Source: a virus
Lineage: Duplodnaviria > Heunggongvirae > Uroviricota > Caudoviricetes
Reading direction: 5' to 3' (one strand)
Length of the DNA stretch: 22,690 nt
Virus record (IMG/VR): IMGVR_UViG_3300028906_000002
A model generated the notes under the pieces. It saw only the letters and a list, made by a program, of their open reading frames with translations, was not told where the DNA came from and ran no database searches. Both the position numbers and the translations under genes were made by a program. Below are positions 1 to 19,320 of the stretch, piece by piece; within the stretch, counting starts at the first letter, position 1, and each line of letters starts with the position of its first letter.

Positions 1-987
1 CCGCAGTCTATGCCGGTTGAGGGCGGAACACTCATGTTCAATGCTGCCGGGCAGAAGGTCTTCATTCCGGAACCGAAGATGGGAACGGTAAAAATTGGTG
101 GTGCGGAGATTCCGACTGTCAGCCATTTCGATCCGGCTTCGGGACGATGGAATACACAAACTCTCGCACCAGGTGGTGGCGTGCAGACCGGGGCACCATC
201 ATCGGACGGCGGCGGTCCGATGCCTCATCCGGCTCAGGCTCAAGGTGGAATAGCCCAACCTGATCTTTCGTCTATCGGAGGCATTCAGGCCGCAGAGGTA
301 GCGCAAGCTGGTGCCAAGAAACAGGCTGAGGAACAGGGCACCACAACCGCCAAAACATTCAATACGATTTACACGGGTGTTACCGGAGACGCCTTTAACG
401 CTGCACGTCAAGCTCCGATCGTCGATGTTTTACAAAGAATCGCTCCAGCCGCACTAACCGGAGCGGGTTCAGATGCAATGCTTGCGTTGAATCGCGTCGC
501 GTCTCAGTTAGGCATTAATCCTGAGGGAGCCGCACCGCGCGAACTTTTCAACCAACTATCTGCTAAGGTTTTGGCCGATCAATTCGCCAATATTCGCAAT
601 ATGAGTACGGAGGAAGGGTCTCCAGGGGGCCGCATTTTCAAATCGATGCTGGATTTGGAAGAAAAGGCAAATATCACTCCTGATGATAGCCTTGCAGGCG
701 TTCAGGCCAAATTGGCTTTCATTAAAAATTCAGGCGATATGTTGCAGCGTTGGGGCAACATGGCAGATGACTACGTGAAAGAGCATGGTGCACTTGATCC
801 AGGATTTATGAAAGCTTTACGTAGCGATATAGCTTCTCAGAAATTCGACAATATCATGCCTGAGGCGGATGCTAGTTCTCCGACCGGAATGAAGACTGCG
901 CCTACCGCGCCAGTATCCAAAGTGATCAACGGCAAGACCTACTATCAAATCAACGGCAAAGTTTACGATAATCCCGAGGGAAAGTAG
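1..987 (+). CDS. Internal virion / DNA ejection-type protein (5' truncated)
   Basis: Frame is open from base 1 (CCG CAG TCT ATG), so the gene starts before the window. Ala/Gly/Gln-rich helical protein ending KVINGKTYYQINGKVY, a C-terminal style common in podovirus internal virion proteins; lies upstream of the tail fibres. Confidence 0.55.
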   Translation, partial: PQSMPVEGGTLMFNAAGQKVFIPEPKMGTVKIGGAEIPTVSHFDPASGRWNTQTLAPGGGVQTGAPSSDGGGPMPHPAQAQGGIAQPDLSSIGGIQAAEVAQAGAKKQAEEQGTTTAKTFNTIYTGVTGDAFNAARQAPIVDVLQRIAPAALTGAGSDAMLALNRVASQLGINPEGAAPRELFNQLSAKVLADQFANIRNMSTEEGSPGGRIFKSMLDLEEKANITPDDSLAGVQAKLAFIKNSGDMLQRWGNMADDYVKEHGALDPGFMKALRSDIASQKFDNIMPEADASSPTGMKTAPTAPVSKVINGKTYYQINGKVYDNPEGK

Positions 988-2778: not shown

Positions 2779-2780
2779 GA

Positions 2781-3365
2781 CTATTTCAGATGCTTCCAAC
2801 GTTCCCGAGATCGAATTCGGCTTATGGCAGGTTGATGCACGCCAAAACGCTTAGCAAGCGCTGTGCTTGTTTCTTGAGAGTTTCGTATTTCATAGATTTC
2901 TTCATCAGTAAACTTAGCATGTCCGTTTCTCATGCCACGAGCATGTCGATCTTTTTCTATACAATCTTCAATATTTCTAGCATTAGTCCCGGGGAAAAGG
3001 TGCAATGGATTTACGCATGGAGGATTATCGCATGTGTGACAAATATCCATCCCTTTTGGAATTGGCCCTTTGTGAACTTGGTAAGAAATTCGGTGGGCTC
3101 TGTGGTGTTGAGAATAGCCCTTTCCCTTAAATTCTGTCGTGATAATCCCGTAGTTATGTGTTCCGCCCTGTCGCGCTCCCGGCCATTCCATACATCCTTT
3201 TTCTGTAGGAACAATCCTGTTGAAAAAGTCCATGAATCGATCTTCAAGTGGTCGTTTCTTTGTCGCATGTTGCAGAAGTGTTCCGAGGCGACGATGACGA
3301 TAATAGCATGGCTTACAAAAACCACGTGCGGCCACGGCTGGCGCGTTACAGTCACGACAAGGCAT
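2781..3365 (-). CDS. HNH homing endonuclease (HNH_3 type) with N-terminal Cys cluster and C-terminal HTH
   Basis: DICHTCDNPPCVNPLHLFPGTNARN motif, N-terminal CRDC...FCKPC, C-terminal AKFTDEEIYEIR...LAKRFGVHQPAISRIR. Start placed at ATG 3365 (AGGA + 5 nt); ORF track start is 3398. Confidence 0.9.
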   Translation of the reverse strand: MPCRDCNAPAVAARGFCKPCYYRHRRLGTLLQHATKKRPLEDRFMDFFNRIVPTEKGCMEWPGARQGGTHNYGIITTEFKGKGYSQHHRAHRISYQVHKGPIPKGMDICHTCDNPPCVNPLHLFPGTNARNIEDCIEKDRHARGMRNGHAKFTDEEIYEIRNSQETSTALAKRFGVHQPAISRIRSRERWKHLK

Positions 3366-3431
3366 GATGTTCCTATCCATAAAACGTGCAAGGAACATAT
3401 AAGACTTTTTGATGTAAAATCAAGTAAAATG

Positions 3432-3444
3432 GGAGGGTGTCACG
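3432..3444 (+). promoter_or_regulatory. Shine-Dalgarno GGAGG + 5 nt + putative ACG start codon
   Basis: GGAGG 3432-3436, spacer GTGTC, ACG 3442-3444 followed by P-R-G-S-N-G-V-Y-S-L-P; in-frame TAA at 3415-3417. Confidence 0.7.
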
Positions 3445-4344
3445 CCTAGAGGTTCGAACGGCGTTTACAGCTTGCCAGTTGCCGCGTTTGTTCCCGGCGG
3501 ACTGATTAAGTCCTCCGATAATAATACAATCAACAACGACCTAGCCACTGCGCTAACACAATCGCTAGCGACCACTGGCGTATCGACAATGACGGGGCAA
3601 CTTGTTGGGTCCGCTGGCCTCGTTACGGCACCAGGATACACGTTCAGCGGCGCGCCAAAGACGGGATTTTTCCTTGCTGGCGCAAATCAAATCGGATGGG
3701 CGGCGAATGGTGTCCAAGGCGCAACGTTCAATGCTGATACTTCCATCACATTTGCAGGAACAATTTCGGCAGCAAAAGGAACGATTCCAGTTGGTGCCGT
3801 GATGGATTATGCTGGCGGCGCTGCTTCTATCCCGTTGCCACCTGGTTGGTTGCTATGCTTTGGGCAGCAAGTATCGACGACAACCTATGCAGCATTGTTT
3901 GCTGTGCTTGGAAACCTGTACGGAGCAGGTGTCGGAACATTCGGCATTCCTGATTATCGTGGTCGAGCCACATACGGCCAAGACAATATGGGTGGATCGG
4001 CGGCGAACCGGATCACGATTGCTGGTCTTAACTTCGATGGTACTATACTTGGGAATGTAGGTGGAAATCAAAACCACACGCTTACAACTGCTGAATTAGC
4101 CGCTCATAATCATGGGATTACTGATCCGGGTCATAATCATACCACATCAACTCCTGTTCCTGGAGGTGGCTCTTCCTTCGAAACATGGAACACAAGCAGC
4201 CTTGCAACAGGCGCTACTTTGGGAGGACCAAATACAGGTAGTTCAACGACAGGAATCACCATCAACAATGCGGGCAGCGGAAATGCTCATACGATTCTGA
4301 GTCCAGCCATCATTACCAACAAAATTATTTTTGCAGGGGTTTAG
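3442..4344 (+). CDS. Tail fibre protein with phage tail collar domain, about 300 aa
   Basis: Collar motif IPVGAVMDYAG...GWLLCFGQQVSTTTYAALFAVLG..YGAG..TFGIPDYRGR; HxH motifs AHNH and GHNH; N-terminal tail anchor (M)PRGSNGVYSLP...DLATALTQS. ORF track starts at TTG 3472, which has no SD; ACG 3442 proposed. Confidence 0.9.
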   Translation, partial: TPRGSNGVYSLPVAAFVPGGLIKSSDNNTINNDLATALTQSLATTGVSTMTGQLVGSAGLVTAPGYTFSGAPKTGFFLAGANQIGWAANGVQGATFNADTSITFAGTISAAKGTIPVGAVMDYAGGAASIPLPPGWLLCFGQQVSTTTYAALFAVLGNLYGAGVGTFGIPDYRGRATYGQDNMGGSAANRITIAGLNFDGTILGNVGGNQNHTLTTAELAAHNHGITDPGHNHTTSTPVPGGGSSFETWNTSSLATGATLGGPNTGSSTTGITINNAGSGNAHTILSPAIITNKIIFAGV

Positions 4345-4348
4345 TTAT

Positions 4349-4483
4349 ATGCCATTCAACTGGACTCCAGAGAAATATAAACAATCACGTGAATGGCATG
4401 CAAATTATTTACGTCAGTGGAATGGGCCAGAGATAATCTGCTCAAGAGCAATAAGACATAGGAGGCGGATATTCCATTCGTAG
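4349..4483 (+). CDS. Small 44-aa ORF MPFNWTPEKYKQSREWHANYLRQWN..., possible endonuclease remnant or overlapping uORF
   Basis: Translated by hand: ATG 4349 to TAG 4481-4483, AGGGG upstream; overlaps the SD and start of the next gene in another frame. Confidence 0.3.
   Translation: MPFNWTPEKYKQSREWHANYLRQWNGPEIICSRAIRHRRRIFHS
4461..4473 (+). promoter_or_regulatory. Shine-Dalgarno GGAGG + 5 nt + putative ATT start codon
   Basis: GGAGG 4461-4465, spacer CGGAT, ATT 4471-4473; in-frame TAG at 4459-4461 caps the ORF, and no in-frame ATG/GTG/TTG occurs until 4534. Confidence 0.7.
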
Positions 4484-5622
4484 GAAATCAATACATCCCG
4501 GTCGCAGGTGCCATCACAGCCGCCCCAGGTCAGGTGCTGCAGTCGGCAATTTGGGATAATATCAACACAGATATTGCGGCGGCTCTAACGCAATTAGCAA
4601 CGCAAGCCAATACGACGCCAACATGGTCGAATATTCTGGCCCCGAACGGCGGATTTGCGATTTGGCAGCGCGGGGCGGGAGCGAATGCGAGTTTTTCGGT
4701 TAACGCCTCGACGACGCAATACACGGCGGATCGTTGGTACATCATCACGGGGGCAAATCAGGCTACCGTTGTAGCGGCGGCAACCGGATTGACTGGTGCT
4801 GCTCCACCAGCACATGCCTGCAAGATTACGCGGACCGCAGCGCAAACCGGAATTACGGCTTACACATTCGGCTATCCATTGACTGCCGATGAAGTCTACC
4901 GCCTGAGAGGACAACAGGTATCATTCAGTGGTGCGGCCAAATCTGGGGCGAATTGGTCGCCGGCACTCGGCGCTTTCACCATCAGCCTTTTGGTCGGAAC
5001 CGGAACGGCTCAGAAGGCCGGCGTGGCTGGCGCTAACTTCTCTGGTTTGTCTACCCCGCTCACAATCACAACCGATCTTGCGGCAGGCGCGACCAATACT
5101 TCGATCACAGGGACAAGCGCGGCAATAGTTCCAATCACGTCAACACAAGGCGAAATTCAGGTAACGTGGACTCCAGTAGGAACGGCTGGAACCGATGACA
5201 GCCTGACGCTCGATCAGTTCTGCCTCGTGGCAGGCGCGATCGTGCAATCATTCGAGGATTTGCCGTTCGATACTTGCTTGCGGGAATGCAAAAAGTTTTT
5301 CCGAAAATCGTTCAACTACAATGTTGCACCGGCTCAGAATGCGGGGAATGGGGGTGCCATTGGCGCATGGTCTCAAGCAGTAGCTAGACTTGGAATATAT
5401 GTTAATCTGGAACCTATCGAAATGTATGTAACGGCTGCGGTCACAACATATCAACCTAATGGCGCATCAGCCAATTGGTCCAATGCAACTAGTGGCGCAA
5501 GTTCAGCACCGACACTTGATGGTACAGTTTCGTCAGGCAAAGGGTTTACGATATTGACGGCAACAGTTAGCAATGTAGATAATTACCTGTTCATCCACTA
5601 CACGGCTGACGCGCCTTTGTAG
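4471..5622 (+). CDS. Second tail fibre / receptor-binding protein with carbohydrate-binding-like domain, about 383 aa
   Basis: N-terminal anchor (M)PFVGNQYIPVAGA...DIAAALTQ is homologous to the first fibre; NGGFAIWQRG...YTADRW and FEDLPFDTCLRECKKFFRKS motifs are typical of phage tail proteins; Thr/Ala/Gly-rich. ORF track start is GTG 4534. Confidence 0.8.
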   Translation: MPFVGNQYIPVAGAITAAPGQVLQSAIWDNINTDIAAALTQLATQANTTPTWSNILAPNGGFAIWQRGAGANASFSVNASTTQYTADRWYIITGANQATVVAAATGLTGAAPPAHACKITRTAAQTGITAYTFGYPLTADEVYRLRGQQVSFSGAAKSGANWSPALGAFTISLLVGTGTAQKAGVAGANFSGLSTPLTITTDLAAGATNTSITGTSAAIVPITSTQGEIQVTWTPVGTAGTDDSLTLDQFCLVAGAIVQSFEDLPFDTCLRECKKFFRKSFNYNVAPAQNAGNGGAIGAWSQAVARLGIYVNLEPIEMYVTAAVTTYQPNGASANWSNATSGASSAPTLDGTVSSGKGFTILTATVSNVDNYLFIHYTADAPL

Positions 5623-5624
5623 AT

Positions 5625-5915
5625 TCAGATCATCTCGTGCGCGATGCTGGCCCATTCCAGCCACCCAGCAAGGTTGATCTGGCTATAATATTCTGAGCGG
5701 CGATCGATGCCTTCATGAGGACAATAGATTTCCTCTGCTAGAAGAGCATCTACCATGAAGTCTTCGAACATGGGCGAATAGGCTTGATTACCGGAGATTT
5801 TCAAAGCATCCCATTTCGCGACGATATTTTCGACTGCATTGGGCGTAAAAACGCAGTCTTTCGGATGATTGCGGATAGTGGTTCTGGCAATCTCAGCGAC
5901 GTAGGGATGATTCAT
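5625..5915 (-). CDS. Hypothetical protein, 96 aa
   Basis: ATGA overlap with the methyltransferase stop at 5912-5915; last gene of the leftward operon. Confidence 0.65.
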   Translation of the reverse strand: MNHPYVAEIARTTIRNHPKDCVFTPNAVENIVAKWDALKISGNQAYSPMFEDFMVDALLAEEIYCPHEGIDRRSEYYSQINLAGWLEWASIAHEMI

Positions 5916-6625
5916 GCTTGCGCCTTTTCGAAAAGCCAAAGCGTAACGTCATCGAGCCCAGTCGTTCGCCTCCACGCGAACTGACATGCAAGGATTTTGA
6001 GCGTCGGAAACTGCGCCAACCAAGCTTCACCCCAGTCCCGACGCCAGAGCATCCCGGATTGCCCGCGATACGTTATTTCCTCCGGAACATGGTTGAAATA
6101 CTCGATCGACAGTATCCAGCGCTTGGACACGCGGTAAATCTCCGACAGTGCGCGAGGCAAATCAGCCGGCGAAACGTGAATCAGCACCCCGGACGTAAAC
6201 ACCATATCGGCAGCATCGTCCGCATAGGGCAATTGGGATAGATCGCCTGGCAGTACGGTCGCAACATCGGCCATAGCCTTGCGGGCAGCCTCGTTCGGAT
6301 CGCAGGACATGAGCTTGATTGGCTGGCGTGACCTCTCATAGATCATATCGATGGCGCGGAGGTTATCCCCGCATCCACCGCCAACCTCAATCACCGATGC
6401 CGGGAAGGGCTGTGCAGACGGACTAGCCTTGTTTGCATTCTCCATGGCTTGGAAAATGTCGCCGAATAGACGGGAGCGGTTCTTGATGGATTCCCAATTG
6501 CTGGCGCATCGCTGCTGATAGGCGTCGCCGAACGCCCCAGACCATTCATCAATGGGAACGCCGCCGACGTACATTTTGACTTTCGTATCCGGAGTAACTA
6601 TCGAGGCCTTAGTGCCGCGTGGCAT
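5912..6625 (-). CDS. Pseudaminic acid biosynthesis-associated SAM methyltransferase
   Basis: WSGAFGDAYQQR, SAM motif VIEVGGGCGDNL, MVFTSGVLIHV, IEYFNHVPEEITYRGQSGMLWRRDWG match the Pse-associated methylase pattern; context supports it. Confidence 0.85.
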   Translation of the reverse strand: MPRGTKASIVTPDTKVKMYVGGVPIDEWSGAFGDAYQQRCASNWESIKNRSRLFGDIFQAMENANKASPSAQPFPASVIEVGGGCGDNLRAIDMIYERSRQPIKLMSCDPNEAARKAMADVATVLPGDLSQLPYADDAADMVFTSGVLIHVSPADLPRALSEIYRVSKRWILSIEYFNHVPEEITYRGQSGMLWRRDWGEAWLAQFPTLKILACQFAWRRTTGLDDVTLWLFEKAQA

Positions 6626-7268
6626 TGTTCGGAATCTCCATGAGTTCGGCCTTGGCCAGCATCTTCTCTAATCGCTCAATATCCGAAGGTACGTCGACGC
6701 AAAGGTTCAATCCGGAACGATCAACCTTTTGCTGAACATTTGCACGCCTAATGCCTCGTGTTTTTTGCATCCAGATTGTAGTATGCTCACGATAATGGGG
6801 TGCCTTGGCCTTGATATGCGCGGCCTCAAGACAATCATACGAGAATGCCTCGACATCGAAGCCCTTCGGATATGTCCGTTTCGGAAACACGTTGGAGCAA
6901 TAGTCCAGATTTTCGGCCTTGAGTAGCGCTAGCACCTCGCCAGCTACGACCGGATCAACAAATGGGCTGTCGCCTGTAATCCTGACGATAGTATCAACAC
7001 CATACATCGTGGCCGCGTCGAAATAGCGGCCTAAAACATCGTCCTCTGAGCCGCTGGCGCATGCTATTCCGAGTGAGTTGCAAAGCTGATAGATCGGGAT
7101 TGAGGAATCATTGGCTGGGAAGGCTACAACGATGGTGTCCACGAATGGTACAAGCTTTGCCCGCTCTATGACGCGCTCAAGCACTGGCTTGCCGGCGAGC
7201 GGCATCAGGACTTTGCCGGGCAATCGTTTGCTCGTCATTCTCGCCTGGATAATTATGCCGGTTGTGAT
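6609..7268 (-). CDS. spsF: Acylneuraminate cytidylyltransferase family (SpsF/PseF-like), about 219 aa
   Basis: IIQARMTSKRLPGKVL, GSEDDVLGRY, VRITGDSPFVDP, YPKGFDVE, REHTT, LCVDVPSD motifs. Proposed ATC start at 7268 (GGAGG + 5 nt, TGATC overlap); ORF track ATG is 7316. Confidence 0.92.
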   Translation of the reverse strand: MTTGIIIQARMTSKRLPGKVLMPLAGKPVLERVIERAKLVPFVDTIVVAFPANDSSIPIYQLCNSLGIACASGSEDDVLGRYFDAATMYGVDTIVRITGDSPFVDPVVAGEVLALLKAENLDYCSNVFPKRTYPKGFDVEAFSYDCLEAAHIKAKAPHYREHTTIWMQKTRGIRRANVQQKVDRSGLNLCVDVPSDIERLEKMLAKAELMEIPNNATRH

Positions 7269-7278
7269 CAGAACCTCC
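7266..7278 (-). promoter_or_regulatory. Shine-Dalgarno GGAGG + 5 nt + putative ATC start overlapping the upstream TGA
   Basis: Minus strand GGAGG-TTCTG-ATC-ACA-ACC-GGC-ATA-ATT-ATC-CAG-GCG-AGA-ATG; TGA of the upstream gene overlaps as TGATC. Confidence 0.6.
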
Positions 7279-7444
7279 CCTTGAATGGCATCGTCGGTAT
7301 CGGTCTGTTTAGCCATTCCTCGCGTTCTATCTTCTGTCGCTCTATGATGCGCCGTGCTCTATCTCGTGTGCTGTGATCTTCTTGGCCAAGTCGATAGCCC
7401 CATGTCTGGACGAGATGATCAATTTCTTTTTCAATATCGTTCAT
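7268..7444 (-). CDS. Hypothetical phage protein, 58 aa (MNDIEKEI...)
   Basis: TGATG overlap at 7442-7446 with the upstream gene; ORF track start is 7504. Confidence 0.6.
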   Translation of the reverse strand: MNDIEKEIDHLVQTWGYRLGQEDHSTRDRARRIIERQKIEREEWLNRPIPTMPFKGRF

Positions 7445-7680
7445 CACGTCACCGCATATGCAAATGGACAGTTCGGCGCATGCAATATCGCGAACTTTCC
7501 GCACGTGCAGCGCGTTTCATTCGGGTGCAGCATTCGATCAAGCTTATCCAATTCAGCCTGTAGATTGAACGGACATGGCTTCTCAACCAGCGCTCCGAGC
7601 GGAGTATCGTGAGCATCCATGCCAGTTAGGCGAGTAATTGTTTCGGCGGCAGCATCCGTTACTAAGAGATATTTTTTCAT
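7444..7680 (-). CDS. Hypothetical phage protein, 78 aa, C-terminal CTC...H...CP
   Basis: ATGA overlap at 7677-7680. Confidence 0.65.
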   Translation of the reverse strand: MKKYLLVTDAAAETITRLTGMDAHDTPLGALVEKPCPFNLQAELDKLDRMLHPNETRCTCGKFAILHAPNCPFAYAVT

Positions 7681-8126
7681 CCGTTATCTCCCATGATCTT
7701 GTGACGAAGCGCTTTTGCATCCCAAAGCGCGTTATGCTGGATCGCCCCAGGTAGCGTCGTCGGATAAGCGTCAACTCGGTGCAATTCGAATCGTAAGAAT
7801 CGGATATTGACCATCTGACCGGGACCAACAACGATCGCTTTGCAGAAATAGGCGATATCGTCGGGCCAATCAGCGATGATCTCCGGACAGCCATCGCCAT
7901 CCAGAAATGCAGCGATCATGTTGCAGAAATTTTTGGTCGCACTTACGAATGGTCTTGCTCCAGGGCATTTAATGATAGGAATGACGTTCTCAGCTATCCA
8001 TGGCAGCGGATTTGTTACAAAAGGAGTTGCCATGTAGAGTTCGCGACCATCCTCGCAAACTAGCGCGAGGCTGATCAGGTCGCCGCCCATGCCGTTGAAC
8101 TCGGTGTCAAGAAAATATCGCGTCAT
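7677..8126 (-). CDS. DEDD 3'-5' exoribonuclease (Rv2179c/DUF5051-like), 149 aa
   Basis: RYFLDTEF...LISLALV and HNALWDAK motifs; ATGA overlap at 8123-8126. Confidence 0.8.
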   Translation of the reverse strand: MTRYFLDTEFNGMGGDLISLALVCEDGRELYMATPFVTNPLPWIAENVIPIIKCPGARPFVSATKNFCNMIAAFLDGDGCPEIIADWPDDIAYFCKAIVVGPGQMVNIRFLRFELHRVDAYPTTLPGAIQHNALWDAKALRHKIMGDNG

Positions 8127-8392
8127 CCAATATCTGCCTTTCCGGTCAAAACAAGCCATGCTTCAGAAATCCGATAACGATAGACCGCAATTCGATCCAT
8201 AAACTGCTTCCATCGCGAATGATAAATGGGATCATATGGCCGATCGGAATATAGGCTAGCGTTCAAGTTGCGAGCCATCTGCTCGACCGATTCATCCATT
8301 CTTTTTTGCAATAAATCAGTCATCTCATGCGAAACGTTCATTGGTATCCACCAATCAGCACCGCTCCGATCGATCTTGTAATCCTCGCTCAT
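8123..8392 (-). CDS. Hypothetical phage protein, 89 aa
   Basis: ATGA overlaps at both ends. Confidence 0.65.
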   Translation of the reverse strand: MSEDYKIDRSGADWWIPMNVSHEMTDLLQKRMDESVEQMARNLNASLYSDRPYDPIYHSRWKQFMDRIAVYRYRISEAWLVLTGKADIG

Positions 8393-8712
8393 GCTTCAAA
8401 CTTCCTCTGCACGTTGCACAAAACCCATCCCCCGTTCGGTCCTTTGATGACCCACGGCAGACCGCAGACATGGCACGGCGCGACCTTGCCACCATATTCC
8501 GGAACCGGTGCATCGCCGATCACTTCGAACATCTTGGATTCCATCACGGAACCGGGAACGACATCGGCTAGCAGTTTGTAGAGGCCATGGTGATTCACAC
8601 ACTTCACGATATCGCCAGCACGACCGGCGGAAACGTATTTCACTGGTTTAACTCCAATGTCCTCAAGCTGCTGCTCGCGGACTCGATTTATATACTCGTC
8701 CCAGGCTATCAT
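8389..8712 (-). CDS. Hypothetical phage protein, 107 aa, C-terminal CHVC...C
   Basis: ATGA overlap with the hisF-like stop at 8709-8712; ORF track start is 8760. Confidence 0.65.
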   Translation of the reverse strand: MIAWDEYINRVREQQLEDIGVKPVKYVSAGRAGDIVKCVNHHGLYKLLADVVPGSVMESKMFEVIGDAPVPEYGGKVAPCHVCGLPWVIKGPNGGWVLCNVQRKFEA

Positions 8713-9425
8713 GTTTCGATCCTCACAGGAACGCCGTGAACTGAAAGATACTCCTTGCAATGTTGAGGAGTGGTGTTTGTGAAAAGGAACATAGACGAAG
8801 CCGCGACCGCATGCGCGCCAGCCTGTATTGCCATCAGCATGTCAGTTGGTGTTCTGCATCCACCATTGGCGATAACCGGGATGTTGACTGCGCCGCATAC
8901 TTTCGTGAGGGTGTTAATTTCATATCCGCACTGCACGCCATCACCATCCATGTTGGTCAAGATGATCTCGCCAGCCCCAGCCTGCTCTACATTTCTTGCA
9001 AGTTCCGGAATTATGTCGCGGAGTCTCAATCCATAGTCCATTGCGATAGTGATGCATTGCGCCCCGAACTTCTTCGAAGCCTCTGATATGAAAGCTCGCG
9101 ATGCTCCAGTGCGCAAAACAACCTTATCGGCTCCAGCATTGAGCAGCCCACGGATATCATCCAGAGATCGGATACCACCGCCGACTGTCACTGGGCAGAA
9201 CAACTTGGACGTGAATTGCTTGATCTCCTCGAAACGTGGTCCACGGCCATGCGGTGTCGCATCGATATCCAGCAAGATCAGCTCGTCACAGGTACGGTTC
9301 TCATAGAGCAGAGCGGCGGACATCAACGAGCCGACGAAACGGCCGGGGCGCTGGAAGGCGATCGGCTTAACGAGGCCTCTGGTGTCCCAGAGCAAAATGG
9401 GTATGATTCTTGTTTTCAACGGCAT
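8709..9425 (-). CDS. hisF: HisF-like cyclase subunit (WbuZ-type partner of N-acetyl sugar amidotransferase)
   Basis: TRIIPILL, DELILLDID, CPVTVGGGIRS, AGADKV, FGAQCITIAMD, GAGEIILTNMDGDG, PVIANGG, AVAASSMF: HisA/HisF TIM barrel; located next to WbuX, with no his operon. Confidence 0.92.
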   Translation of the reverse strand: MPLKTRIIPILLWDTRGLVKPIAFQRPGRFVGSLMSAALLYENRTCDELILLDIDATPHGRGPRFEEIKQFTSKLFCPVTVGGGIRSLDDIRGLLNAGADKVVLRTGASRAFISEASKKFGAQCITIAMDYGLRLRDIIPELARNVEQAGAGEIILTNMDGDGVQCGYEINTLTKVCGAVNIPVIANGGCRTPTDMLMAIQAGAHAVAASSMFLFTNTTPQHCKEYLSVHGVPVRIET

Positions 9426-9426
9426 A

Positions 9427-9846
9427 TTAAAACAACTTCACCAATATTCGGCGCCACCATGGCTGTCGTCGATTCCAAGTAGACTTGATGAGAAGTGACG
9501 TTAATAAAGGAGAACGATACCAGGCTTTCCGATATTGTGCCCGCTTCTCGATAATCTGCCAATTCGAGCGGAGAGCTACGCGTTGATTATGGATGCGCTT
9601 GTCAAGCTTTAGGCGCTCCTGTTTTAATTGTTCGACTTTGGCGGTCAGAGCTTTGCATGTATGCGCAGCAGATTCCATCAATTGGAGCGCTCGGTCGCAA
9701 CCGGATTCATTGATGGCAGATACTTCTCTCAGGTCTCCGATTGCCCGATAAGAACGTGCTAGAACATCCTGCCACCAAGCATTAATTCCAGCTTGGTGAC
9801 GGGCCTTATTGATATCGGACAAAAGTTCATCCAAATCCGGTGTCAC
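9427..9846 (-). CDS. Hypothetical coiled-coil phage protein, 139 aa
   Basis: GTGA overlap at 9843-9846; heptad-like segment LTAKVEQLKQERLKLDKRI. Confidence 0.65.
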   Translation of the reverse strand: MTPDLDELLSDINKARHQAGINAWWQDVLARSYRAIGDLREVSAINESGCDRALQLMESAAHTCKALTAKVEQLKQERLKLDKRIHNQRVALRSNWQIIEKRAQYRKAWYRSPLLTSLLIKSTWNRRQPWWRRILVKLF

Positions 9847-10280
9847 TTTGGTCTCTTGATATAGCTTATCTGCAGAAGCTCAAATCCAAGCGTTTCGAAC
9901 ACGTCAATTGATCGCGCATTTAGCGGATTGATGTTGGCTAGGAAGCATTCGCCGGGGTGCCGATTCATCAGAAGGCATATTGCAGTCTTGCCGTAGCCTT
10001 TGCCATGGTATTCCTTTGCGATGAAGATGCCGATCTCGTTCTGCTTCGATAGGTAGATCGCGCCGATCGGTCCCATTTCTACGGTCCCCCATTCATCGAA
10101 AATGACAAACCATTCCCGGTACGGGCGCGAATCCACGAAGGCGCAGTGTTGCTCAAATGAGGGCATCTCGCGGTGGCTTATGTTCTGGTGCGGCTCGCGC
10201 TCTTTCAGCATCTCATATAGGAACTTCGTCGCTACCCGCGTCTCTGCTATCTCGGTGTAGACATCGATAAGTTTGATCAC
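9843..10280 (-). CDS. GNAT N-acetyltransferase (PseH-like by context), 145 aa
   Basis: EIGIFIAKEYHGKGYGK acetyl-CoA motif A and ANINPLNARSIDVFETLGF motif B. GTG start at 10280 with AAAGG upstream; ORF track start is 10349. Confidence 0.85.
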   Translation of the reverse strand: MIKLIDVYTEIAETRVATKFLYEMLKEREPHQNISHREMPSFEQHCAFVDSRPYREWFVIFDEWGTVEMGPIGAIYLSKQNEIGIFIAKEYHGKGYGKTAICLLMNRHPGECFLANINPLNARSIDVFETLGFELLQISYIKRPK

Positions 10281-10291
10281 GGTTGCGCCTT

Positions 10292-10498
10292 TTATTTTGA
10301 GGTACAAAAAGCTCGAAGCTTGCGATGATAACCATATTCCCTCTCCCAACCTTGGGTTTGATCTTGTATCTCTTTGATTGCACCAGCGCAGCGTTCCATC
10401 GTCGAATACTCTTGTGTAGTAATAGCAACGCCTTCACTATCGCCAAAACTTCCAGCGGAAACCCAAGACACTATGATAATCATAATAGCTGTATTCAT
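10292..10498 (-). CDS. Small exported/membrane phage protein, 68 aa, with Cys pair
   Basis: Hydrophobic N-terminus MNTAIMIIIVSWVSAG; C...C pattern; fills the gap between wbuX and the GNAT gene. Confidence 0.65.
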   Translation of the reverse strand: MNTAIMIIIVSWVSAGSFGDSEGVAITTQEYSTMERCAGAIKEIQDQTQGWEREYGYHRKLRAFCTSK

Positions 10499-10501
10499 AT
10501 C

Positions 10502-11638
10502 TCAATCTTTCTCATTGACGGGACTGAACAGCGGTTGAATATCGCCCCTCACATGCGAGCCCGCGAATAGATCGCGGTTAGTGAAGGTGTCGCAGCCCTC
10601 AAGGAACTCATGCACGGTCATGCCTAGAGGTTTCAGGACTTCTCTGAGCGGCACGTCAAGATAAGTGGCGGGGAACATGGCGTCACGTTCCGCAGCGATC
10701 GGAGCAGCGTCTCTCCGGCTGATAAGCCCTCGACGAATGTGGTTAGAGAGAAGATCAGTGGCCCGCCCATAGCCATATTTGATGTAACGGAGCCAGTCGT
10801 GGGCCCCGACCTGGATATTGTCTAAATTTTCATATCCCCAGTAAGAACCCTCAATATGCTTTGGCCAGATTTCAAATCCATGCTGTACAGCTAGTTCGGC
10901 ATTCGCCAATCCGGACCAAGGGAAAAACTGGCCCAAGAAGATTCCCTGCGGCGGCTCGTTTCCTAACTCCGGATACTGATACAACTCACCGATAGGACCA
11001 AGTGTAGCCTCCACATCGGCGACGCGGAGACCGTTCAATCCGCCGAATTCGTTTAACCAGTCCTGCGTGAGCTTCGTCGCTAATTGGGCCTCCTTCGGTC
11101 CTCCATATTCCGCTTGTGGATTCTCTGCCCAAATAATCAGCGGAATCTTCATCATCGACGCAACACGGACCGGGATTGAAAATATAGTGATATGCTCTGC
11201 CCATGAAATATCTCCAATGGTCTCCAGAGTGAAACGGTTGATCTTACGCCTGATTACGGGATTCGTCTTTACCTCAATGTGGTCGCAGCCAAGTTTGCTG
11301 ATGTTGTCTAAGTTGTGCCGGCCAATTGCGGAGAGATGATCCGTCTCGGCAGTGACGGCTAGGACGCGCAAGCCGTAGTCCAATGCTTTTATCACTTGGT
11401 AATGACTGTCTTTTCCGCCCGATACTGGCACGACGCAATCATAGGCCGCGCCATTGTGCCGAGCCTCGCGCCGCGTTTCCACCACCAGATGCTGAAATTG
11501 CTTCTCTCTATCGGCCCAATCGATCAGAGAGCGGGCATCGAATGCCTGGCAGGCTGAGCATAGGCCATCCTCATTCCATGTTAGATCAGGTTTGGAACCG
11601 AGTGGATAAAGACATTTGCAACAATAAATTCGGCTCAT
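10502..11638 (-). CDS. wbuX: N-acetyl sugar amidotransferase (WbuX/PseA family), 378 aa
   Basis: N-terminal CCKCLYP...KPDL..NEDGLCSAC, YDCVVPVSGGKDS PP-loop, GDISWAEH, WAENPQAEYGG, HDWLRYIKYGYGRATD, IRRGLISR. Confidence 0.92.
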   Translation of the reverse strand: MSRIYCCKCLYPLGSKPDLTWNEDGLCSACQAFDARSLIDWADREKQFQHLVVETRREARHNGAAYDCVVPVSGGKDSHYQVIKALDYGLRVLAVTAETDHLSAIGRHNLDNISKLGCDHIEVKTNPVIRRKINRFTLETIGDISWAEHITIFSIPVRVASMMKIPLIIWAENPQAEYGGPKEAQLATKLTQDWLNEFGGLNGLRVADVEATLGPIGELYQYPELGNEPPQGIFLGQFFPWSGLANAELAVQHGFEIWPKHIEGSYWGYENLDNIQVGAHDWLRYIKYGYGRATDLLSNHIRRGLISRRDAAPIAAERDAMFPATYLDVPLREVLKPLGMTVHEFLEGCDTFTNRDLFAGSHVRGDIQPLFSPVNEKD

Positions 11639-12441
11639 GGACGCGGTACCGTGAATCCGGCTGCGTTCTTATGGCCACCTCCACCGAAGCGCCGAGCTAT
11701 CTCACTCACATCGAAGTCGCCACGAGAACGAAGCGACCAAATCACGTCAGTTCCAGTTTCGGCATACATAGCCGCGAACGGATAACCTTCCGCAGCCAGT
11801 TCGCCGCAGACTTCGGATGACATGAACAGAGAAGCATTGACGACCGGGACCTTGTGACCCGCGATATATCGCAAGAAAGCGTGCTTCTTGGTTTGTTCGA
11901 CTAAGATGCGGTAATAGCGCTGGATGGCGTGCCCTTCCTGAACGAGATAGCCAACGCCCCTGGTCACCAGCCTATCCCACGTGGTGAAATCTTGCGGATA
12001 CGAGCGTAGCGCGGCCGTGAACTCATCGACGAAGGCTAGCTTCTTGGTCCACAGATCGCGGTCCTGCAGATAAAGGAAAAACTCAGGGACTTCCTCGTCT
12101 GGATGGAAAAATTCCCATGCCATAACCGCACCGCTGCGGCTCATATCAAAATGGACATCAACGTTTCGACATTCATCCGATAAGCCAGCGAGATCGGCCT
12201 CAGCCGTCTTGTGGTGGTCAAGAACCAAGATCGATTTTGCTTTTGCAGCAAGTTCAATCATGACGTGACATTTGTATGAGAAATCTACGATCGCAACATC
12301 AAGGCCTGTTACATCTGGAGGCTCTTTGCCATAGACGCCAGCGTGATAGGTCACGCAATCGCCATCACGTTTCCACACGGCGAACGCTGCTCCAAAACCA
12401 TCGTCACATGATCCATGGTAAATGCAAAGGTCTGGCGTCAT
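11635..12441 (-). CDS. DHH/DHHA1 phosphoesterase, 268 aa
   Basis: IYHGSCDDGFGAA, IVDFS, LDHHKT, QDRDLW, WSLRS, GGGHKNAAGF; ATGA overlaps at both ends. Confidence 0.9.
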   Translation of the reverse strand: MTPDLCIYHGSCDDGFGAAFAVWKRDGDCVTYHAGVYGKEPPDVTGLDVAIVDFSYKCHVMIELAAKAKSILVLDHHKTAEADLAGLSDECRNVDVHFDMSRSGAVMAWEFFHPDEEVPEFFLYLQDRDLWTKKLAFVDEFTAALRSYPQDFTTWDRLVTRGVGYLVQEGHAIQRYYRILVEQTKKHAFLRYIAGHKVPVVNASLFMSSEVCGELAAEGYPFAAMYAETGTDVIWSLRSRGDFDVSEIARRFGGGGHKNAAGFTVPRP

Positions 12442-13091
12442 TTCATATTCCTTATCGATTTGACATATTCCCGAAATTCATCCGGCGTCGATGAAAACGC
12501 CTCGTCGTGGCACGGCACATCCGGCAACCGCAGATGCCGCTCAACCATTGGACATCGATAGCTGACAAACCGCATATTTGCCGAATGATCGGATACCCCG
12601 AGCGCGCCGTCTTCCTTGTCGTCATATTCCGTTGCGCGTAGAATCGTCACGCCATCAACGGGACGCACCGATATGATGATTGGCTTTCCGGTCGCGACTA
12701 CGGCGTTAATCAAGTCGCCGTCCAGCATCTCGAATGCGCTTATCTTGTAGCGGGGGCAGTTGAGCATTTCGAGGAAGGCAACATCATCGGGGGAAAAGAC
12801 CGACGAGAACCAAGGAATATCAACCGATTTAGCATGCTCAATCATCGGCTCAAACCACTCGCGCGGTGTGTATGTTTCGCGGTACAGGTCAAGTAGAGAG
12901 CGTCCGTGGAAATCCTTGGCGAGTGCTACGACACGAGGATTCTTGGCGCGTTTGGCAGCAAGACGTTCTGGCATGAACGCCTGCCACTTGATTGCATCTG
13001 CGCCAGAGGATTTAGCCTCCGAGATCAAGCGCAGAGCATTGAGATATGAGCCGCCGTGAGTTGAGCCGATCTCTGCTACGATTTCTGTCAT
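12438..13091 (-). CDS. pseI: N-acetylneuraminate synthase family, PseI-like, short form (217 aa)
   Basis: VAEIGSTHGG, GADAIKWQ, LYRETYTPREW, YKISAFE, TGKPIIIS, GVSDHS, VERH; no C-terminal SAF/antifreeze-like domain. ATGA overlap at 13088-13091. Confidence 0.85.
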   Translation of the reverse strand: MTEIVAEIGSTHGGSYLNALRLISEAKSSGADAIKWQAFMPERLAAKRAKNPRVVALAKDFHGRSLLDLYRETYTPREWFEPMIEHAKSVDIPWFSSVFSPDDVAFLEMLNCPRYKISAFEMLDGDLINAVVATGKPIIISVRPVDGVTILRATEYDDKEDGALGVSDHSANMRFVSYRCPMVERHLRLPDVPCHDEAFSSTPDEFREYVKSIRNMK

Positions 13092-13750
13092 CGAAAGCAC
13101 CTAAATGTACTCAAATCAGGATAATCGTCCCAAGGAAGATCAGCATTGTGCTTCGGCAGCAAACGAAGTTTGGTAAGCCCGTGCGCCGCCAATTCGGGGG
13201 AAAGATATGCGTGCCAGCCGACCATATCGATGTTGTCGTTCTTGGGTGCGATTCCTTCAGTTCTCCCGTCGAAGCGGGCCTTCCTTAGCCACTCGTCGGC
13301 ATATGGATTATCGTGGAGTATGGCTCCAGCCTGAGAAATGCTGAGAATCTTGCCCCAGTGAAACGAAACGCATTGCATTTGTCCCGGCACAAACATTCCG
13401 GATGTAAAGCGGCGCGCAAAATCCCAGACCGGGGTCGGCTTGAGCTGATATCCGCCGACCCAACTCTCGTCACGGAACGCAACCTTGCATCCGGCATGTA
13501 TGATAGATTGCGGGACGCTTATGTACGTATATCGTGGTATCTCCACGATCATAGGATCAAATTCGATCTGGATGCCATCCAGCGTGAGACCAGCGGGCTT
13601 GCGCATAATGACCTGATCGCAACACGCGACTGCTAGCAATATCGCCATCGTGCATGATGTGGTAGACACAGCGTACCGAGCGCCCGTGTAATCGCACAGC
13701 GCGGCCTCAAACTGGCGTACAACATCGAAAGGATTGAGGGAGACAGTCAC
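13088..13750 (-). CDS. pseC: DegT/DnrJ/EryC1/StrS PLP aminotransferase, PseC-like by context, short form (220 aa)
   Basis: FEAALCDYTGARYAVSTTSCTMAILLA, WDFA (PLP Asp), CVSFHWGKIL (PLP Lys), AGAIL, GWHAYLS. GTG start at 13750 overlaps the pseB TGA; ORF track start is 13840. The pseC label rests on adjacency to pseB. Confidence 0.8.
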   Translation of the reverse strand: MTVSLNPFDVVRQFEAALCDYTGARYAVSTTSCTMAILLAVACCDQVIMRKPAGLTLDGIQIEFDPMIVEIPRYTYISVPQSIIHAGCKVAFRDESWVGGYQLKPTPVWDFARRFTSGMFVPGQMQCVSFHWGKILSISQAGAILHDNPYADEWLRKARFDGRTEGIAPKNDNIDMVGWHAYLSPELAAHGLTKLRLLPKHNADLPWDDYPDLSTFRCFR

Positions 13751-14601
13751 CGCAGCATCTCTCGCAACTCGGCAACCGACATCCGCCGTGCTTTGTCGCT
13801 CGAATTGCCTTCTGCCATCGATTCGTGCTGCTTTTCCCATTTTGGGAGCCCGATGATTCGCATCTTCGCCCCCATAGCCTCAGCGAGGTCGCCTAGGCGA
13901 TAGGCCGGCAGAGTAGGGATTACGATCTCGCCTCCCCGCATCGTCTCAGCCGTATTCAGGACCAGATCGACGGCCTCTTCTATTGTCATGAAGAAGCGCG
14001 TGCAGTCCGGATCGGTAACCGGAACAGTATCCGCACCTTCGGCCAGCATTTTGCGCCAAGTCGGAACAACCGAACCAGTAGATGAAAAAATATTTCCGTA
14101 GCGGCAAACGACGAAGATCGGGCCGCGTTTTCCACGCATATTATTTGCAGCCAGAAATAATGATTCAGCAAATGCCTTGCTAGTTCCGTAGGGGGAAACC
14201 GGCTGAAAAACCTTGTCGGTTGATAACGCAACAACTTTGGACACATGCGCATCATGCGCAGCCTCAATGACATTACTCGCCCCGCCAATGTTCGTTTTTG
14301 AAATTTCAATCGGATTGTAGAAAGCTGTCTCGATTCGTTTCAAGGCAGCGGCATGAAATACTACCTCCACGTCTTCCATAGCTCGCCGCAGTCTATCCCT
14401 ATCTCTTACGTCACCGATGAACATCCGAAGGCGTTCATGCGGATCAAGCGACGTAAGTTCACGCGCCATCTCGGCTTGGCGGTGCTCTCCCCTGGAATAG
14501 ACAACGATGCGGTGTGGGTTGTCCTGTTTCATGGTGAGCAAGCGCTTGACGAGCGCAGTCCCAAAAAATCCTGTCGCTCCCGTCACCAGCACACTTTTCA
14601 T
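13747..14601 (-). CDS. pseB: UDP-N-acetylglucosamine 4,6-dehydratase (PseB/FlaA1-like), 284 aa
   Basis: VLVTGATGFFG, RMFIGDVRD, FHAAALK, YNP.E..KTNI.GA, ALSTDK, YGTSK, AANN, RYGN, TRFFMT, GGEI, EKQHE. Confidence 0.92.
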   Translation of the reverse strand: MKSVLVTGATGFFGTALVKRLLTMKQDNPHRIVVYSRGEHRQAEMARELTSLDPHERLRMFIGDVRDRDRLRRAMEDVEVVFHAAALKRIETAFYNPIEISKTNIGGASNVIEAAHDAHVSKVVALSTDKVFQPVSPYGTSKAFAESLFLAANNMRGKRGPIFVVCRYGNIFSSTGSVVPTWRKMLAEGADTVPVTDPDCTRFFMTIEEAVDLVLNTAETMRGGEIVIPTLPAYRLGDLAEAMGAKMRIIGLPKWEKQHESMAEGNSSDKARRMSVAELREMLR

Positions 14602-14867
14602 TGACGTGTCTTCCCAGAAAATTCGATAATCTCAGAAGACTCGCGGCCGTGATCATTCGCGTGATGCTTTTGGCCCTCGAAATCCACGTGAATGATATTC
14701 ATCTCACATCGTTTGCACCAAACTTGAAGTCCTAGCTCGGTCCAGCCTGCTTCAAGGCTGACCCAAGCGCGCGGCGATATCCCAATGGGCTTGTCTTTCA
14801 GGCAATGCGCACAATGAAAGAACATCTTGATTTCGTTTGTGGCAGGTATCTTGCGAGGTGGTTTCAC
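14598..14867 (-). CDS. Hypothetical phage protein with two CxxC motifs, 89 aa
   Basis: HCAHC and WCKRC; GTGA overlap at 14864-14867; ORF track start is 14915. Confidence 0.7.
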   Translation of the reverse strand: MKPPRKIPATNEIKMFFHCAHCLKDKPIGISPRAWVSLEAGWTELGLQVWCKRCEMNIIHVDFEGQKHHANDHGRESSEIIEFSGKTRQ

Positions 14868-14950
14868 GCAAGCACCCACGTCAGAACCCCGAGGAGTACG
14901 AGCGATGCGAGGCATACGGCGGAAAACGAATAGAACACAGGTGCGGTCAT
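14864..14950 (-). CDS. Small single-TM peptide, 28 aa (MTAPVFYSFSAVCLASLVLLGVLTWVLA)
   Basis: ATG 14950 with AAGGGA upstream; stop overlaps the GTG of the next gene. Confidence 0.55.
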   Translation of the reverse strand: MTAPVFYSFSAVCLASLVLLGVLTWVLA

Positions 14951-15236: not shown

Positions 15237-15523
15237 TTTATAGCCTCGTCCATTGCGGCTTTGTAGCCCTCGGACATGCAGTGATAGGTGCTCATATGCG
15301 CTTCGTATCGCTCAGCAGCCTTGGTCGCGGCGTCCCGCATTGCGTCGGTAGGTTCTCGCATCGCCGAGATCGCAGCACGAGCAGCATCAATGCCAAATCC
15401 GCGCTCATCGCCGTCAAGATCATCAAATGACAGCGGACCTTTGCCAGTTTGGCCATCCTCGTCCATCTGCTTGCGCCACGATGCGAAAATAGCCCGCGCC
15501 ACCCGATCAATCATTTCGCTCAT
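15233..15523 (-). CDS. Hypothetical phage protein, 96 aa (MSEMIDRVARAI...AARAAISAMREPTDAM)
   Basis: Common alphaproteobacterial phage hypothetical pattern; GGAGG 9 nt upstream of ATG 15523. Confidence 0.7.
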   Translation of the reverse strand: MSEMIDRVARAIFASWRKQMDEDGQTGKGPLSFDDLDGDERGFGIDAARAAISAMREPTDAMRDAATKAAERYEAHMSTYHCMSEGYKAAMDEAIK

Positions 15524-16220
15524 GCTGGAATGCCTCCGATATACCATGTTGATATAGATTTATTCCTTCATCAGAAAGTTCATTTCGAGCAATAGTAGAA
15601 ATTTCTTCCCATGTTTTCATAATTTTTGATGCTAGAAGTTTTCCATTTTCTTCATCTGCTGGTGGAATACTTATGCGTATATTTACTCGGCAGTTGAATT
15701 CTACTCCACCTAAGATTTGCCTTGCAGTTCTTCGTATTTCCTTAAAAAAATCAATGGACGCACGCTCTAATCCAATTGTTTTCATTCTGCTCTTGCGTGC
15801 GGTGCGTGAGACCCGGATAAGAGCTTTCCGAATTATATTTAAAACATTATCATGATCTGAGCGCGATAGTATAATATCGAAAGCATATCCATCGTGTTGG
15901 ATAATTTCATCTCCAACCTCGTAAATGGCACTCAAAAATGTTGCGGTAATGCATTCAATATTTTTTTGATCAATATCGTTCTGAATACGGTTCTTCAGCA
16001 ATTTTGCCTTGTTGTATTTTGGAGATTCAGATTGAATAGCTAAAGTTTCCATGGCCAAAGCTTCTTCGCGATCGGCGCATTGCTGGATTTCAACCTTTTT
16101 GATCAGGTCAAACCAAGATGAAGCTTTATGTTGGGAAAGCCTAATAATTGGGCGCAACGAAATTCCAACATAGAGAAGAACTCCGTCTGCATCAAAATGG
16201 CGATAGAGGTGGCAAGTCAT
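15507..16220 (-). CDS. GIY-YIG nuclease domain protein with unknown C-terminal region, 237 aa
   Basis: HLYRHFDADGVLLYVGIS..PIIRLSQH...EEALAMETLAIQSESPKYN; ATGA overlap at 16217-16220; AT-rich body. Confidence 0.8.
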   Translation of the reverse strand: MTCHLYRHFDADGVLLYVGISLRPIIRLSQHKASSWFDLIKKVEIQQCADREEALAMETLAIQSESPKYNKAKLLKNRIQNDIDQKNIECITATFLSAIYEVGDEIIQHDGYAFDIILSRSDHDNVLNIIRKALIRVSRTARKSRMKTIGLERASIDFFKEIRRTARQILGGVEFNCRVNIRISIPPADEENGKLLASKIMKTWEEISTIARNELSDEGINLYQHGISEAFQHERND

Positions 16221-16649: not shown

Positions 16650-17300
16650 ATGAGCAATTTTGCCGATGCGCTGATCAAACTCTGGCCGCACGCTGATTCG
16701 CATGTTCCGGGACTGATTGAGGGTATGATTGCATCGGCTCCGACCGTATTCCCGAAATATGGGCTCGATTCGGACCTGACGATTGCCCACGCGATGGCCC
16801 AGTTTTCCGAAGAGTGTGGTTGCGGTGCCGAGATGCAGGAAAACATGAACTATTCGGCCGCCCGACTCCTGCAAGTCTTTCCCACCCATTTTTCACACGA
16901 TCAAGCCATTGCGATGCAGCATAATCCCCGTGCGATCGCGGATCAGGCATATGGGTCGAGAATGGGCAATCATCCCGGAACGGATGACGGCTGGAACTTT
17001 CGGGGCCAAGGATTGTCACAGGTGACCGGTAGGCAGGGTTACGCCGCACTGGCTGCAAAGACTGGTCTGGACCTTTTAACGCATCCTGAGCTGATTGTGG
17101 CCCCGGCAACCACCCTTGAATGCGGAGTGGGGGATTTCGTGCTCTGCGGCTGCCTGCCCTATGCCGAGAAGGATAGCCTGTTGGGCGTCTCATCCATGCT
17201 CAATGTCGGCCATTTCGTTGGAAATCCGAATCAGATCAACGGATATGCGATGCGAAAGAGTTGGTTGTCGCTCTGGAAGCATGCGATGGGCCTTTTATGA
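16650..17300 (+). CDS. Glycoside hydrolase family 19 (chitinase-like) endolysin, 216 aa
   Basis: IAHAMAQFSEECG (catalytic Glu retained), ENMNYSAARLLQVFP, YGSRMGN, DGWNFRGQGLSQVTGRQGY; AGGGA SD. Confidence 0.9.
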   Translation: MSNFADALIKLWPHADSHVPGLIEGMIASAPTVFPKYGLDSDLTIAHAMAQFSEECGCGAEMQENMNYSAARLLQVFPTHFSHDQAIAMQHNPRAIADQAYGSRMGNHPGTDDGWNFRGQGLSQVTGRQGYAALAAKTGLDLLTHPELIVAPATTLECGVGDFVLCGCLPYAEKDSLLGVSSMLNVGHFVGNPNQINGYAMRKSWLSLWKHAMGLL

Positions 17301-19251: not shown

Positions 19252-19320
19252 AGCCCAATACCACCTTGACGCGAAGCCATTTTGTTGGGCATTGTCAGGC
19301 TCTCAAGAGATGAGGGCTTT

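Follow-up and report, generated by a model that had tools for sequence, protein, structure and literature searches.

A phage gene array with half-size aminotransferase and synthase enzymes, probably for a pseudaminic-acid-type sugar worn by the virion

Nonulosonic acids are treated as markers of the cell surface, where they occur on flagella, capsules and lipopolysaccharide (LPS), and as phage receptors. What use would a virus have for genes that make such a sugar? The question is raised by a stretch of 22,690 nucleotides (the window) of the Caudoviricetes record IMGVR_UViG_3300028906_000002, in which eight sugar genes with small genes interleaved among them occupy positions 5912-14601 on the minus strand. 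A reading made from the letters alone and without database searches (the sequence-only reading) had described them as a nearly complete pathway to pseudaminic acid (Pse) activated with cytidine monophosphate (CMP-Pse), domesticated by the virus and serving an acceptor that it could not name. We consider it probable that the phage possesses a working, resident pathway to a nonulosonate of the CMP-Pse type and that the donor is spent, most likely, on its own virion by means of a Maf-type transferase whose gene lies in the capsid module.

Gene identities were assigned by comparison with Pfam, NCBIfam (TIGR), phrog and PDB entries, each cut-off quoted below being the family's own bit threshold. 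All eight genes named by the sequence-only reading were recovered by the family scans in the places and on the strand that it had given. The PseB-like protein, a UDP-N-acetylglucosamine (UDP-GlcNAc) 4,6-dehydratase of the inverting type with 284 amino acids (13747-14601; Polysacc_synt_2, 266 bits), has TIGR03589 as its best family with 311 bits over profile positions 5-269 of 324, yet stays below the cut-off of 407.75 because it lacks about 50 C-terminal residues. It has the NAD and catalytic motifs GATGFFG, STDK and YGTSK, and this short form of about 283 residues recurs in at least 120 metagenomic clusters at 69% identity or more. Cut-offs were exceeded by the N-acetyl sugar amidotransferase of the WbuX/PseA family (10502-11638, 378 amino acids; TIGR03573, 251.9 bits, cut-off 203.2), which carries the PP-loop SGGKDS at residue 73 and N-terminal cysteine pairs and had no tblastn match among 50,697 deposited phages, and by the Pse-associated S-adenosylmethionine (SAM) methyltransferase (5912-6625; TIGR03587, 116.3 bits, cut-off 112.05), in which the SAM motif EVGGGCG is present. 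The cyclase-type partner of the amidotransferase, a HisF-like protein of 238 amino acids (8709-9425; His_biosynth, 145 bits), scored highest with WbuZ (TIGR03572, 191 bits, below the cut-off of 299.7) and has aspartate motifs, LWD at 14 and IAMD at 129, that we take to be the catalytic positions of HisF. A GNAT N-acetyltransferase of about 145-154 residues (9843-10307), the candidate for the PseH step, matched only the generic Pfam families Acetyltransf_3 and Acetyltransf_1; no PseH match was obtained for it in NCBIfam at E <= 0.01 (the PseH model there is presumably TIGR03585), and in the PDB it comes closest to MJ1062, an uncharacterised protein. The candidate for the PseF step is an SpsF/KdsB-like CMP-sugar synthetase (6609-7316; CTP_transf_3, 87 bits), whose best PDB match is the cytidylyltransferase 6OEW (103.6 bits) and which reached 25 bits with PseF itself (TIGR03584, cut-off 205.7). 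The N-terminus typical of its family starts about 16 codons into the ATG-started reading frame (7250-7316), and a GGAGG followed 5 nucleotides later by ATC stands just after the stop codon of the upstream gene; the true start probably lies at this point, about 16 codons downstream of the ATG.

Two members of the set are strikingly short, at about 60% of the usual length. Next to PseB, a half-size sugar aminotransferase of the DegT/PseC type, dependent on pyridoxal phosphate (PLP), has 220 amino acids (13088-13750; DegT, 52 bits) as compared to about 380 in PseC, and obtains 28.5 bits with the PseC family (TIGR03588, cut-off 423.5). Its GTG start overlaps the PseB stop codon as GTGA and its TGA stop overlaps the start of the PseI gene, so that at 220 residues the gene already touches both neighbours and no room is left for a lost part. 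The protein aligns with ArnB and PseC over the PLP-binding domain only, and keeps the lysine motif SFHWGK. A full-library search returned 631 relatives; the 384 cluster representatives found at E<1e-10 were mostly 200-220 residues long, and in an alignment of 72 relatives K134, S129, G162 and R163 were invariant and D110 nearly so. The AlphaFold2 model (predicted local distance difference test, pLDDT, 93.8) was matched by Foldseek to sugar aminotransferases (GDP-perosamine synthase, ArnB and PseC) over their large domain, with template-modelling scores of 0.60-0.66 relative to the query (TMq) and of about 0.4 relative to the target (TMt). A homodimer was modelled with a score of 0.83, the best of three controls having 0.00; in the benchmark, this mark was attained for 20 of 30 proteins whose structures had been solved as homodimers, as compared to 1 of 23 with single-chain structures. 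Contacts agreed to 100% between runs, the pLDDT of the partner was at least 89, and the interface includes the invariant G162 and R163. As DegT dimers have been solved, the score may reflect likeness to these and is not proof of binding. A natural fusion of a mini DegT with a GNAT (P0202) fits consecutive steps of amination and acetylation. In another protein, of 866 amino acids and metagenomic (P0196), a relative of the mini aminotransferase forms the C-terminal domain and is accompanied by a glycosyltransferase family 1 (GT1) domain and an FkbM methyltransferase domain, and elsewhere some predicted genes join the mini aminotransferase to an Endonuclease_7 or HNH domain.

The pseudaminic acid synthase-like protein, mini PseI, is only 217 amino acids long (12438-13091), and scored 142 bits with PseI (TIGR03586, cut-off 340) as compared to 98 bits with NeuB. 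Canonical NeuB binds its substrate with, among others, a segment of the barrel and the C-terminal SAF domain; when mini PseI was aligned with Campylobacter jejuni PseI (8H2C) and NmNeuB, about 45 residues inside the barrel (NmNeuB residues ~158-205) and the entire SAF domain were found to be missing. The metal-ligand motifs SDHS and ERH are kept. E10, K38, Q40, K119 and E124, equivalent to NmNeuB E25, K53, Q55, K129 and E134, are invariant, as are S170, H172, E187 and H189 (NmNeuB S213, H215, E234 and H236), S144 and D199; we assume for the residues with NmNeuB equivalents, metal ligands included, the roles described in the NeuB literature. The AlphaFold2 model has a pLDDT of 91.3 and its best fold match in the PDB is again PseI 8H2C (TMq 0.75-0.79). 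More than 120 metagenomic clusters hold a mini PseI of the same length at 54-95% identity, many of them on contigs of 83-88 kb. Among the 50,697 deposited phages the sole match was a weak one, in a marine virus, and none carries a mini PseI.

In a pattern scan of bacterial genomes with the mini-PseI alignment, the only matches were two cellular PseI genes of ordinary, full length, about 30% identical. The gene tree comprised 22 mini PseI, 28 cellular PseI from 201 sampled Pseudomonadota and the full-length PseI of a phage-like contig (L015). All 22 mini PseI form one clade (Shimodaira-Hasegawa-like approximate likelihood ratio test support 100), nested among cellular PseI and set off by a stem of 2.39 substitutions per site; the phage-like contig L015 provides the sister (support 96), although with so long a branch the exact sister is uncertain. 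The best identity to a cellular protein is 43%, over the N-terminal half only. As far as these sequences tell, the short PseI form arose once, and a single origin on a long branch excludes a recent capture from a host.

The window is part of a contig of about 86.6 kb from an uncultured, soil-type phage, which was recovered from several assemblies. The same gene set is present at 45-77% amino acid identity in a complete IMG/VR genome of 84,710 bp with direct terminal repeats (G001), with PseI and an adjoining DHH phosphoesterase gene in swapped order, and it recurs in further relatives (L010 and L011), the overall range being 45-95% identity. Between the window and L010 the ratio of nonsynonymous to synonymous substitution rates (dN/dS) is 0.06 for PseI, 0.11 for the DHH gene and 0.14 for WbuX; overall values span 0.06-0.27, and the remaining pairs, saturated at synonymous sites, are still well below 1. 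The same comparison reveals a sharp mosaic across 11635-14601: PseI and the DHH gene of L010 are 94% identical to those of the window while identity falls to about 47% in the neighbouring PseB and mini aminotransferase, and its PseB is full-length (339 amino acids). This mosaicism indicates that alleles have been exchanged among phages within the cluster. GC content does not differ between the sugar cluster and the remainder of the window. Other phage contigs carry other versions: in L007 a full-length DegT accompanies a mini NeuB and a formyltransferase gene is present, and in L015 a full-length DegT accompanies a full-length NeuB with its SAF domain, together with ATP-grasp and PIG-L deacetylase genes. 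Judged by gene content, these clusters look like makers of differently decorated nonulosonates, and the differences between them indicate that phage nonulosonate clusters are diverse. In both contigs a fusion of CTP_transf_3 with a class-III aminotransferase (665 amino acids; 5442-7442 in L007, 8007-10004 in L015) adjoins a short PseB, in a neighbourhood of formyltransferase, ATP-grasp, PIG-L deacetylase and oxidoreductase genes.

The set shared among relatives, the purifying selection, the mosaicism, the equal GC content and the deep PseI clade together support a resident viral pathway, neither a captured host locus nor debris. The sequence-only reading had reached the same view, and had proposed to look for the gene combination in viral databases and to place the genes on trees with those of hosts, naming relaxed selection and a single recent transfer from the host as signs to the contrary. 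The combination was found in G001 and in other phage contigs, the deep mini clade of the PseI tree excludes a single recent transfer for this gene, and the dN/dS values are those of purifying selection.

What was not borne out is that the pathway is nearly complete. Family scans of the window yielded no candidate for PseG, and in the complete relative G001 nothing was detected with TIGR03590 at E <= 0.01 or with PF04101 (Glyco_tran_28_C) at E <= 10. A HisH-type glutaminase (WbuY) is missing from the window, and no glutamine amidotransferase (GATase) match was found in G001. The GNAT is not PseH and the cytidylyltransferase is not PseF by the family comparisons. Several of these observations weigh against a working pathway: the absence of PseG from both window and G001, by which the pathway is not self-sufficient as currently understood; the absence of the glutaminase; the scores of PseC, PseI, PseF and PseH far below the NCBIfam cut-offs; an aminotransferase without its C-terminal domain; and a synthase without one barrel segment and the SAF domain. 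With PseG, PseC, PseH and PseF as they stand, the family comparisons would not place the phage set as a strict member of the canonical Pse pathway. Either the host or small unrecognised proteins would supply the PseG and glutaminase steps. A candidate for such a protein is encoded by the 107-residue open reading frame (ORF) directly after WbuZ (8389-8712), which is conserved at the same position in G001 and L011 (64% identity); it has no family match, and its atlas look-up scores, below 0.9, gave no lead.

On what would the sugar be spent? The window holds no recognisable glycosyltransferase, in agreement with the sequence-only reading, which had named no acceptor and advised a search for a linked Maf or other glycosyltransferase gene. 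Such a gene narrows the choice: G001 encodes a Maf-like protein of 311 amino acids, matched by PF01973 (58.5 and 57.2 bits, cut-off 34.6), in a head gene block whose order is major head gene, a 183-residue virion structural protein with 22% serine plus threonine, and the Maf-like gene. Maf enzymes are flagellin glycosyltransferases. No match to GT1 or to glycosyltransferase family 2 (GT2) was obtained in G001, the Maf-like gene being the only transferase recognised there. As this sole transferase is Maf-like and lies in the head block, and GT1 and GT2 are lacking, virion glycosylation is favoured over DNA modification; O-glycosylation of the virion appears to us the most economical reading, with remodelling of the host surface possible and DNA modification unlikely. 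G001 has no integrase match and carries a block of 28 tRNA genes, and on these grounds looks virulent. Among its tRNAs (L004 14173-17777; L005 1826-1899), one was called with a four-base anticodon (taaa), and a separate one, with the anticodon CTA, would decode amber stop codons. Among capsid proteins, that of Bradyrhizobium phage ppBjS10J-1 is the nearest to the one of G001 (51.6% identity), followed by more distant matches in Stenotrophomonas, Myxococcus, Ruegeria, Rhizobium and Brucella phages; the likeness weakly fits an alphaproteobacterial host. No Maf is annotated beside the capsid gene of ppBjS10J-1.

In the pathway that we propose, the short PseB would convert UDP-GlcNAc to a 4-keto-6-deoxy sugar, which the half-size PLP aminotransferase, acting as a dimer, would aminate at C4 and the GNAT would acetylate at the new amine. 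UDP would then be removed by PseG of the host or by a phage protein yet to be recognised, and mini PseI would condense the free sugar with phosphoenolpyruvate (PEP). WbuX and the HisF-like WbuZ would turn one acetamido group into an acetamidino group, with ammonia or a host glutaminase as the nitrogen source since no HisH is present; the methylase would add a methyl group and the SpsF-like enzyme would make the CMP-sugar, from which the Maf-type transferase encoded in the capsid module would transfer the sugar to virion proteins. Tentatively, this scheme might be extended to a large, uncultured, soil-type group of phages, in which PseB, PseC and PseI of minimal-core form, functioning without domains considered essential in bacteria, would serve to make a Pse with acetamidino or methyl decorations, possibly produced independently of PseG and O-linked to the virion by the Maf-like enzyme of the capsid module.

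The sugar could also be meant for the host surface, the CMP-sugar serving as donor for transferases of the host, or for the phage Maf with flagellin, capsule or LPS of the host as its target, so that receptors are masked during infection, competing phages blocked or progeny kept off debris. We regard this as unlikely without dismissing it: the missing PseG and glutaminase imply that the phage relies on a host with a Pse-type pathway of its own, Maf is known for flagellin glycosylation, and two proteins of the L011 cluster suggest a neighbourhood shaped by conflict. They are a 139-residue PF25185 (Tad3) protein at 9439-9858 and a 294-residue PF25187 (Acb3) protein after the methylase at 12806-13690; we take both family names to denote anti-defence proteins. 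Lysogenic conversion, however, is improbable in a phage whose relative has no integrase and 28 tRNAs, and the Maf-like gene lies in the head block beside the Ser/Thr-rich virion protein and not in an early or accessory region. Dependence on host PseG and an incomplete gene set would equally suit an auxiliary metabolic set that boosts or diverts the nonulosonate flux of the host and has no dedicated phage acceptor, but we hold this to be improbable for a phage that brings its own tailoring enzymes (WbuX, WbuZ and the methylase), its own activating enzyme and phage-specific enzyme architectures under strong purifying selection, and in whose genome type a Maf-like transferase occurs.

The two remaining explanations we consider very improbable. 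Phages do glycosylate their own DNA, as two reports describe (PMC5889632, PMC13326640), and the sugar might be attached to phage DNA as a hypermodification; against this, G001 has no GT1 or GT2, its sole transferase belongs to a family that glycosylates proteins and sits among head genes, and our literature search found no nonulosonate modification of DNA. Finally, the short PseC, PseI and PseB, at 60-85% of canonical length and with scores below family cut-offs, might be what is left of a captured host locus in decay, with no functioning pathway. The same short lengths nevertheless recur in hundreds of metagenomic clusters with invariant catalytic residues, confident predicted folds and dN/dS ratios in the range given above, and the genes have no internal stops and are joined by precise 4-nucleotide overlaps that leave no space for lost parts. 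Synthesis of a Pse-type sugar for the phage's own virion remains the reading that we prefer.

The layout of the locus is that of a compact phage array. About 18 genes on the minus strand occupy 5625-14915 and are convergent with the tail-fibre gene; inspection of junctions and reading frames found 11 of the 17 junctions in this block to be 4-nucleotide ATGA or GTGA stop/start overlaps and no internal stop in any array gene. On the tail side (1-5622, plus strand), the boundary is set by a tail-collar-domain protein (3472-4344; PF07484, 60 bits) and a tail fibre (4534-5622; phrog_4492), with phrog_8763 and phrog_4492 as the tail families matched in 3472-5622. On the other side, further minus-strand genes extend up to 16603 and are followed by an endolysin of the glycoside hydrolase family 19 (GH19) type (16650-17300, plus strand; PDB matches 8P8E, PWe1 endolysin and 4OK7, E 5e-21 to 3e-15). 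The tail-fibre and endolysin flanks, the small genes between the sugar genes and the stop/start overlaps described by the sequence-only reading are thus all present. Scans of the window for promoters and terminators gave no more matches than chance, a megablast of the whole window against the deposited phages gave none, and a pattern scan in IMG/VR found no relative of the tail protein at 988-2778. Three free-standing genes of the homing-endonuclease type surround the array: one with HNH_3 among the tail genes (2781-3398, minus strand), one with GIY-YIG upstream of the sugar genes (15507-16220, minus strand) and one with HNH/NUMOD3 at the end of the window (22093-22689, plus strand); in relatives, HNH genes lie at other sites within the sugar cluster, one example being L011, where an HNH gene separates the cytidylyltransferase from the methylase. 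An ORF at 19282-19827 (plus strand) weakly matches phrog_1128 (enoyl-CoA hydratase/carnitine racemase-like, 39 bits) and is conserved in G001 (30%) and L011 (51%).

The block also has members that the earlier account had not listed. A DHH/DHHA1 phosphoesterase (11635-12441; phrog_4771, 280 bits; DHHA1, 37 bits) adjoins PseI in the window, G001, L010 and L011; the clusters of L007, L015 and an 86.9-kb contig carrying P0064 lack it. It was considered as a substitute for PseG and set aside, since phrog_4771 is a common phage family and the gene is missing from several phage clusters with a synthase. An RNase H/DEDD-exonuclease-like phage gene lies at 7677-8126 (phrog_2259, 126 bits, with a weak RNase AS match). 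Between the GNAT and WbuZ genes, a variable slot is filled by a 139-residue ORF (9427-9846) with no family match and atlas scores below 0.9, which has no real similarity to the Tad3 protein that occupies the same slot in L011; apparently, the sugar array also takes in accessory genes. The last gene of the block, a 96-residue ORF convergent with the tail-fibre gene (5625-5915), overlaps the methylase gene by 4 nucleotides, and at the opposite end a 105-residue ORF (14598-14915) is joined to PseB by an ATGA overlap; neither has a family match.

A virus that builds and probably wears such a sugar would change the view of phage particle stability, adsorption, evasion of recognition by hosts or predators, and immunogenicity; if the proposal is true, phages would have sugar "serotypes", and the enzymes would be the smallest known of their classes. 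As natural minimal versions of two much-studied classes of enzyme, the half-size PseC and PseI offer material for testing which portions of the fold are indispensable, and compact building blocks for glyco-engineering. The PseG gap would mean either a strict dependence on Pse-producing hosts, which helps host prediction, or an enzyme that has escaped recognition. As no deposited phage matches, no cultured phage is at hand for such work.

The literature that we searched describes phage proteins that bind Pse on flagella; a Pse pathway encoded by a phage, virions carrying Pse and half-size forms of PseC or PseI did not appear in it. The miniaturised enzymes are the particular contribution of the present locus. 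The closest known system is the bacterial CMP-Pse pathway of C. jejuni and Helicobacter pylori (PseB-C-H-G-I-F plus PseA), with which the phage set shares enzyme families, WbuX/PseA and the methylase included, and Pse-type best-scoring families and best PDB match. In contrast to it, the phage set has no PseG, short forms of PseB, PseC and PseI, an SpsF/KdsB-like cytidylyltransferase and a GNAT that is not recognisably PseH, and it is carried by a virulent-looking phage. The difference in size is large: the aminotransferase chains matched in the PDB have about 365-375 residues as compared to 220, and the synthase chains 341-349 as compared to 217. The Leptospira homologue 6NCS (290 amino acids) is an example of a NeuB-type synthase that has no SAF domain; mini PseI is shorter still, about 45 barrel residues being additionally gone. 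From the WbuX/WbuY/WbuZ system of O-antigen clusters the phage has WbuX and the HisF-type WbuZ, without the HisH-type WbuY. A PF01973 protein is found in G001 as in the Maf O-glycosyltransferases that transfer nonulosonates to flagellin, but it is compact and lies among head genes, with no flagellin involved.

Phage enzymes that would decorate the phage's own capsid or tail proteins have a precedent in mycobacteriophages, whose virions are glycosylated by ordinary phage-encoded glycosyltransferases from host sugar nucleotides; the present phage, in contrast, encodes most of the pathway to the donor, a nine-carbon acidic sugar. Pse chemistry is likewise the target of Acinetobacter baumannii prophages, in which EpaA/EpaB and O-acetyltransferases modify Pse in the capsule (PMC12053666, PMC6586298). 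Whereas these are one or two tailoring genes that change the capsule of the host, the genes described here make up a biosynthetic pathway and reside in a phage of the virulent type.

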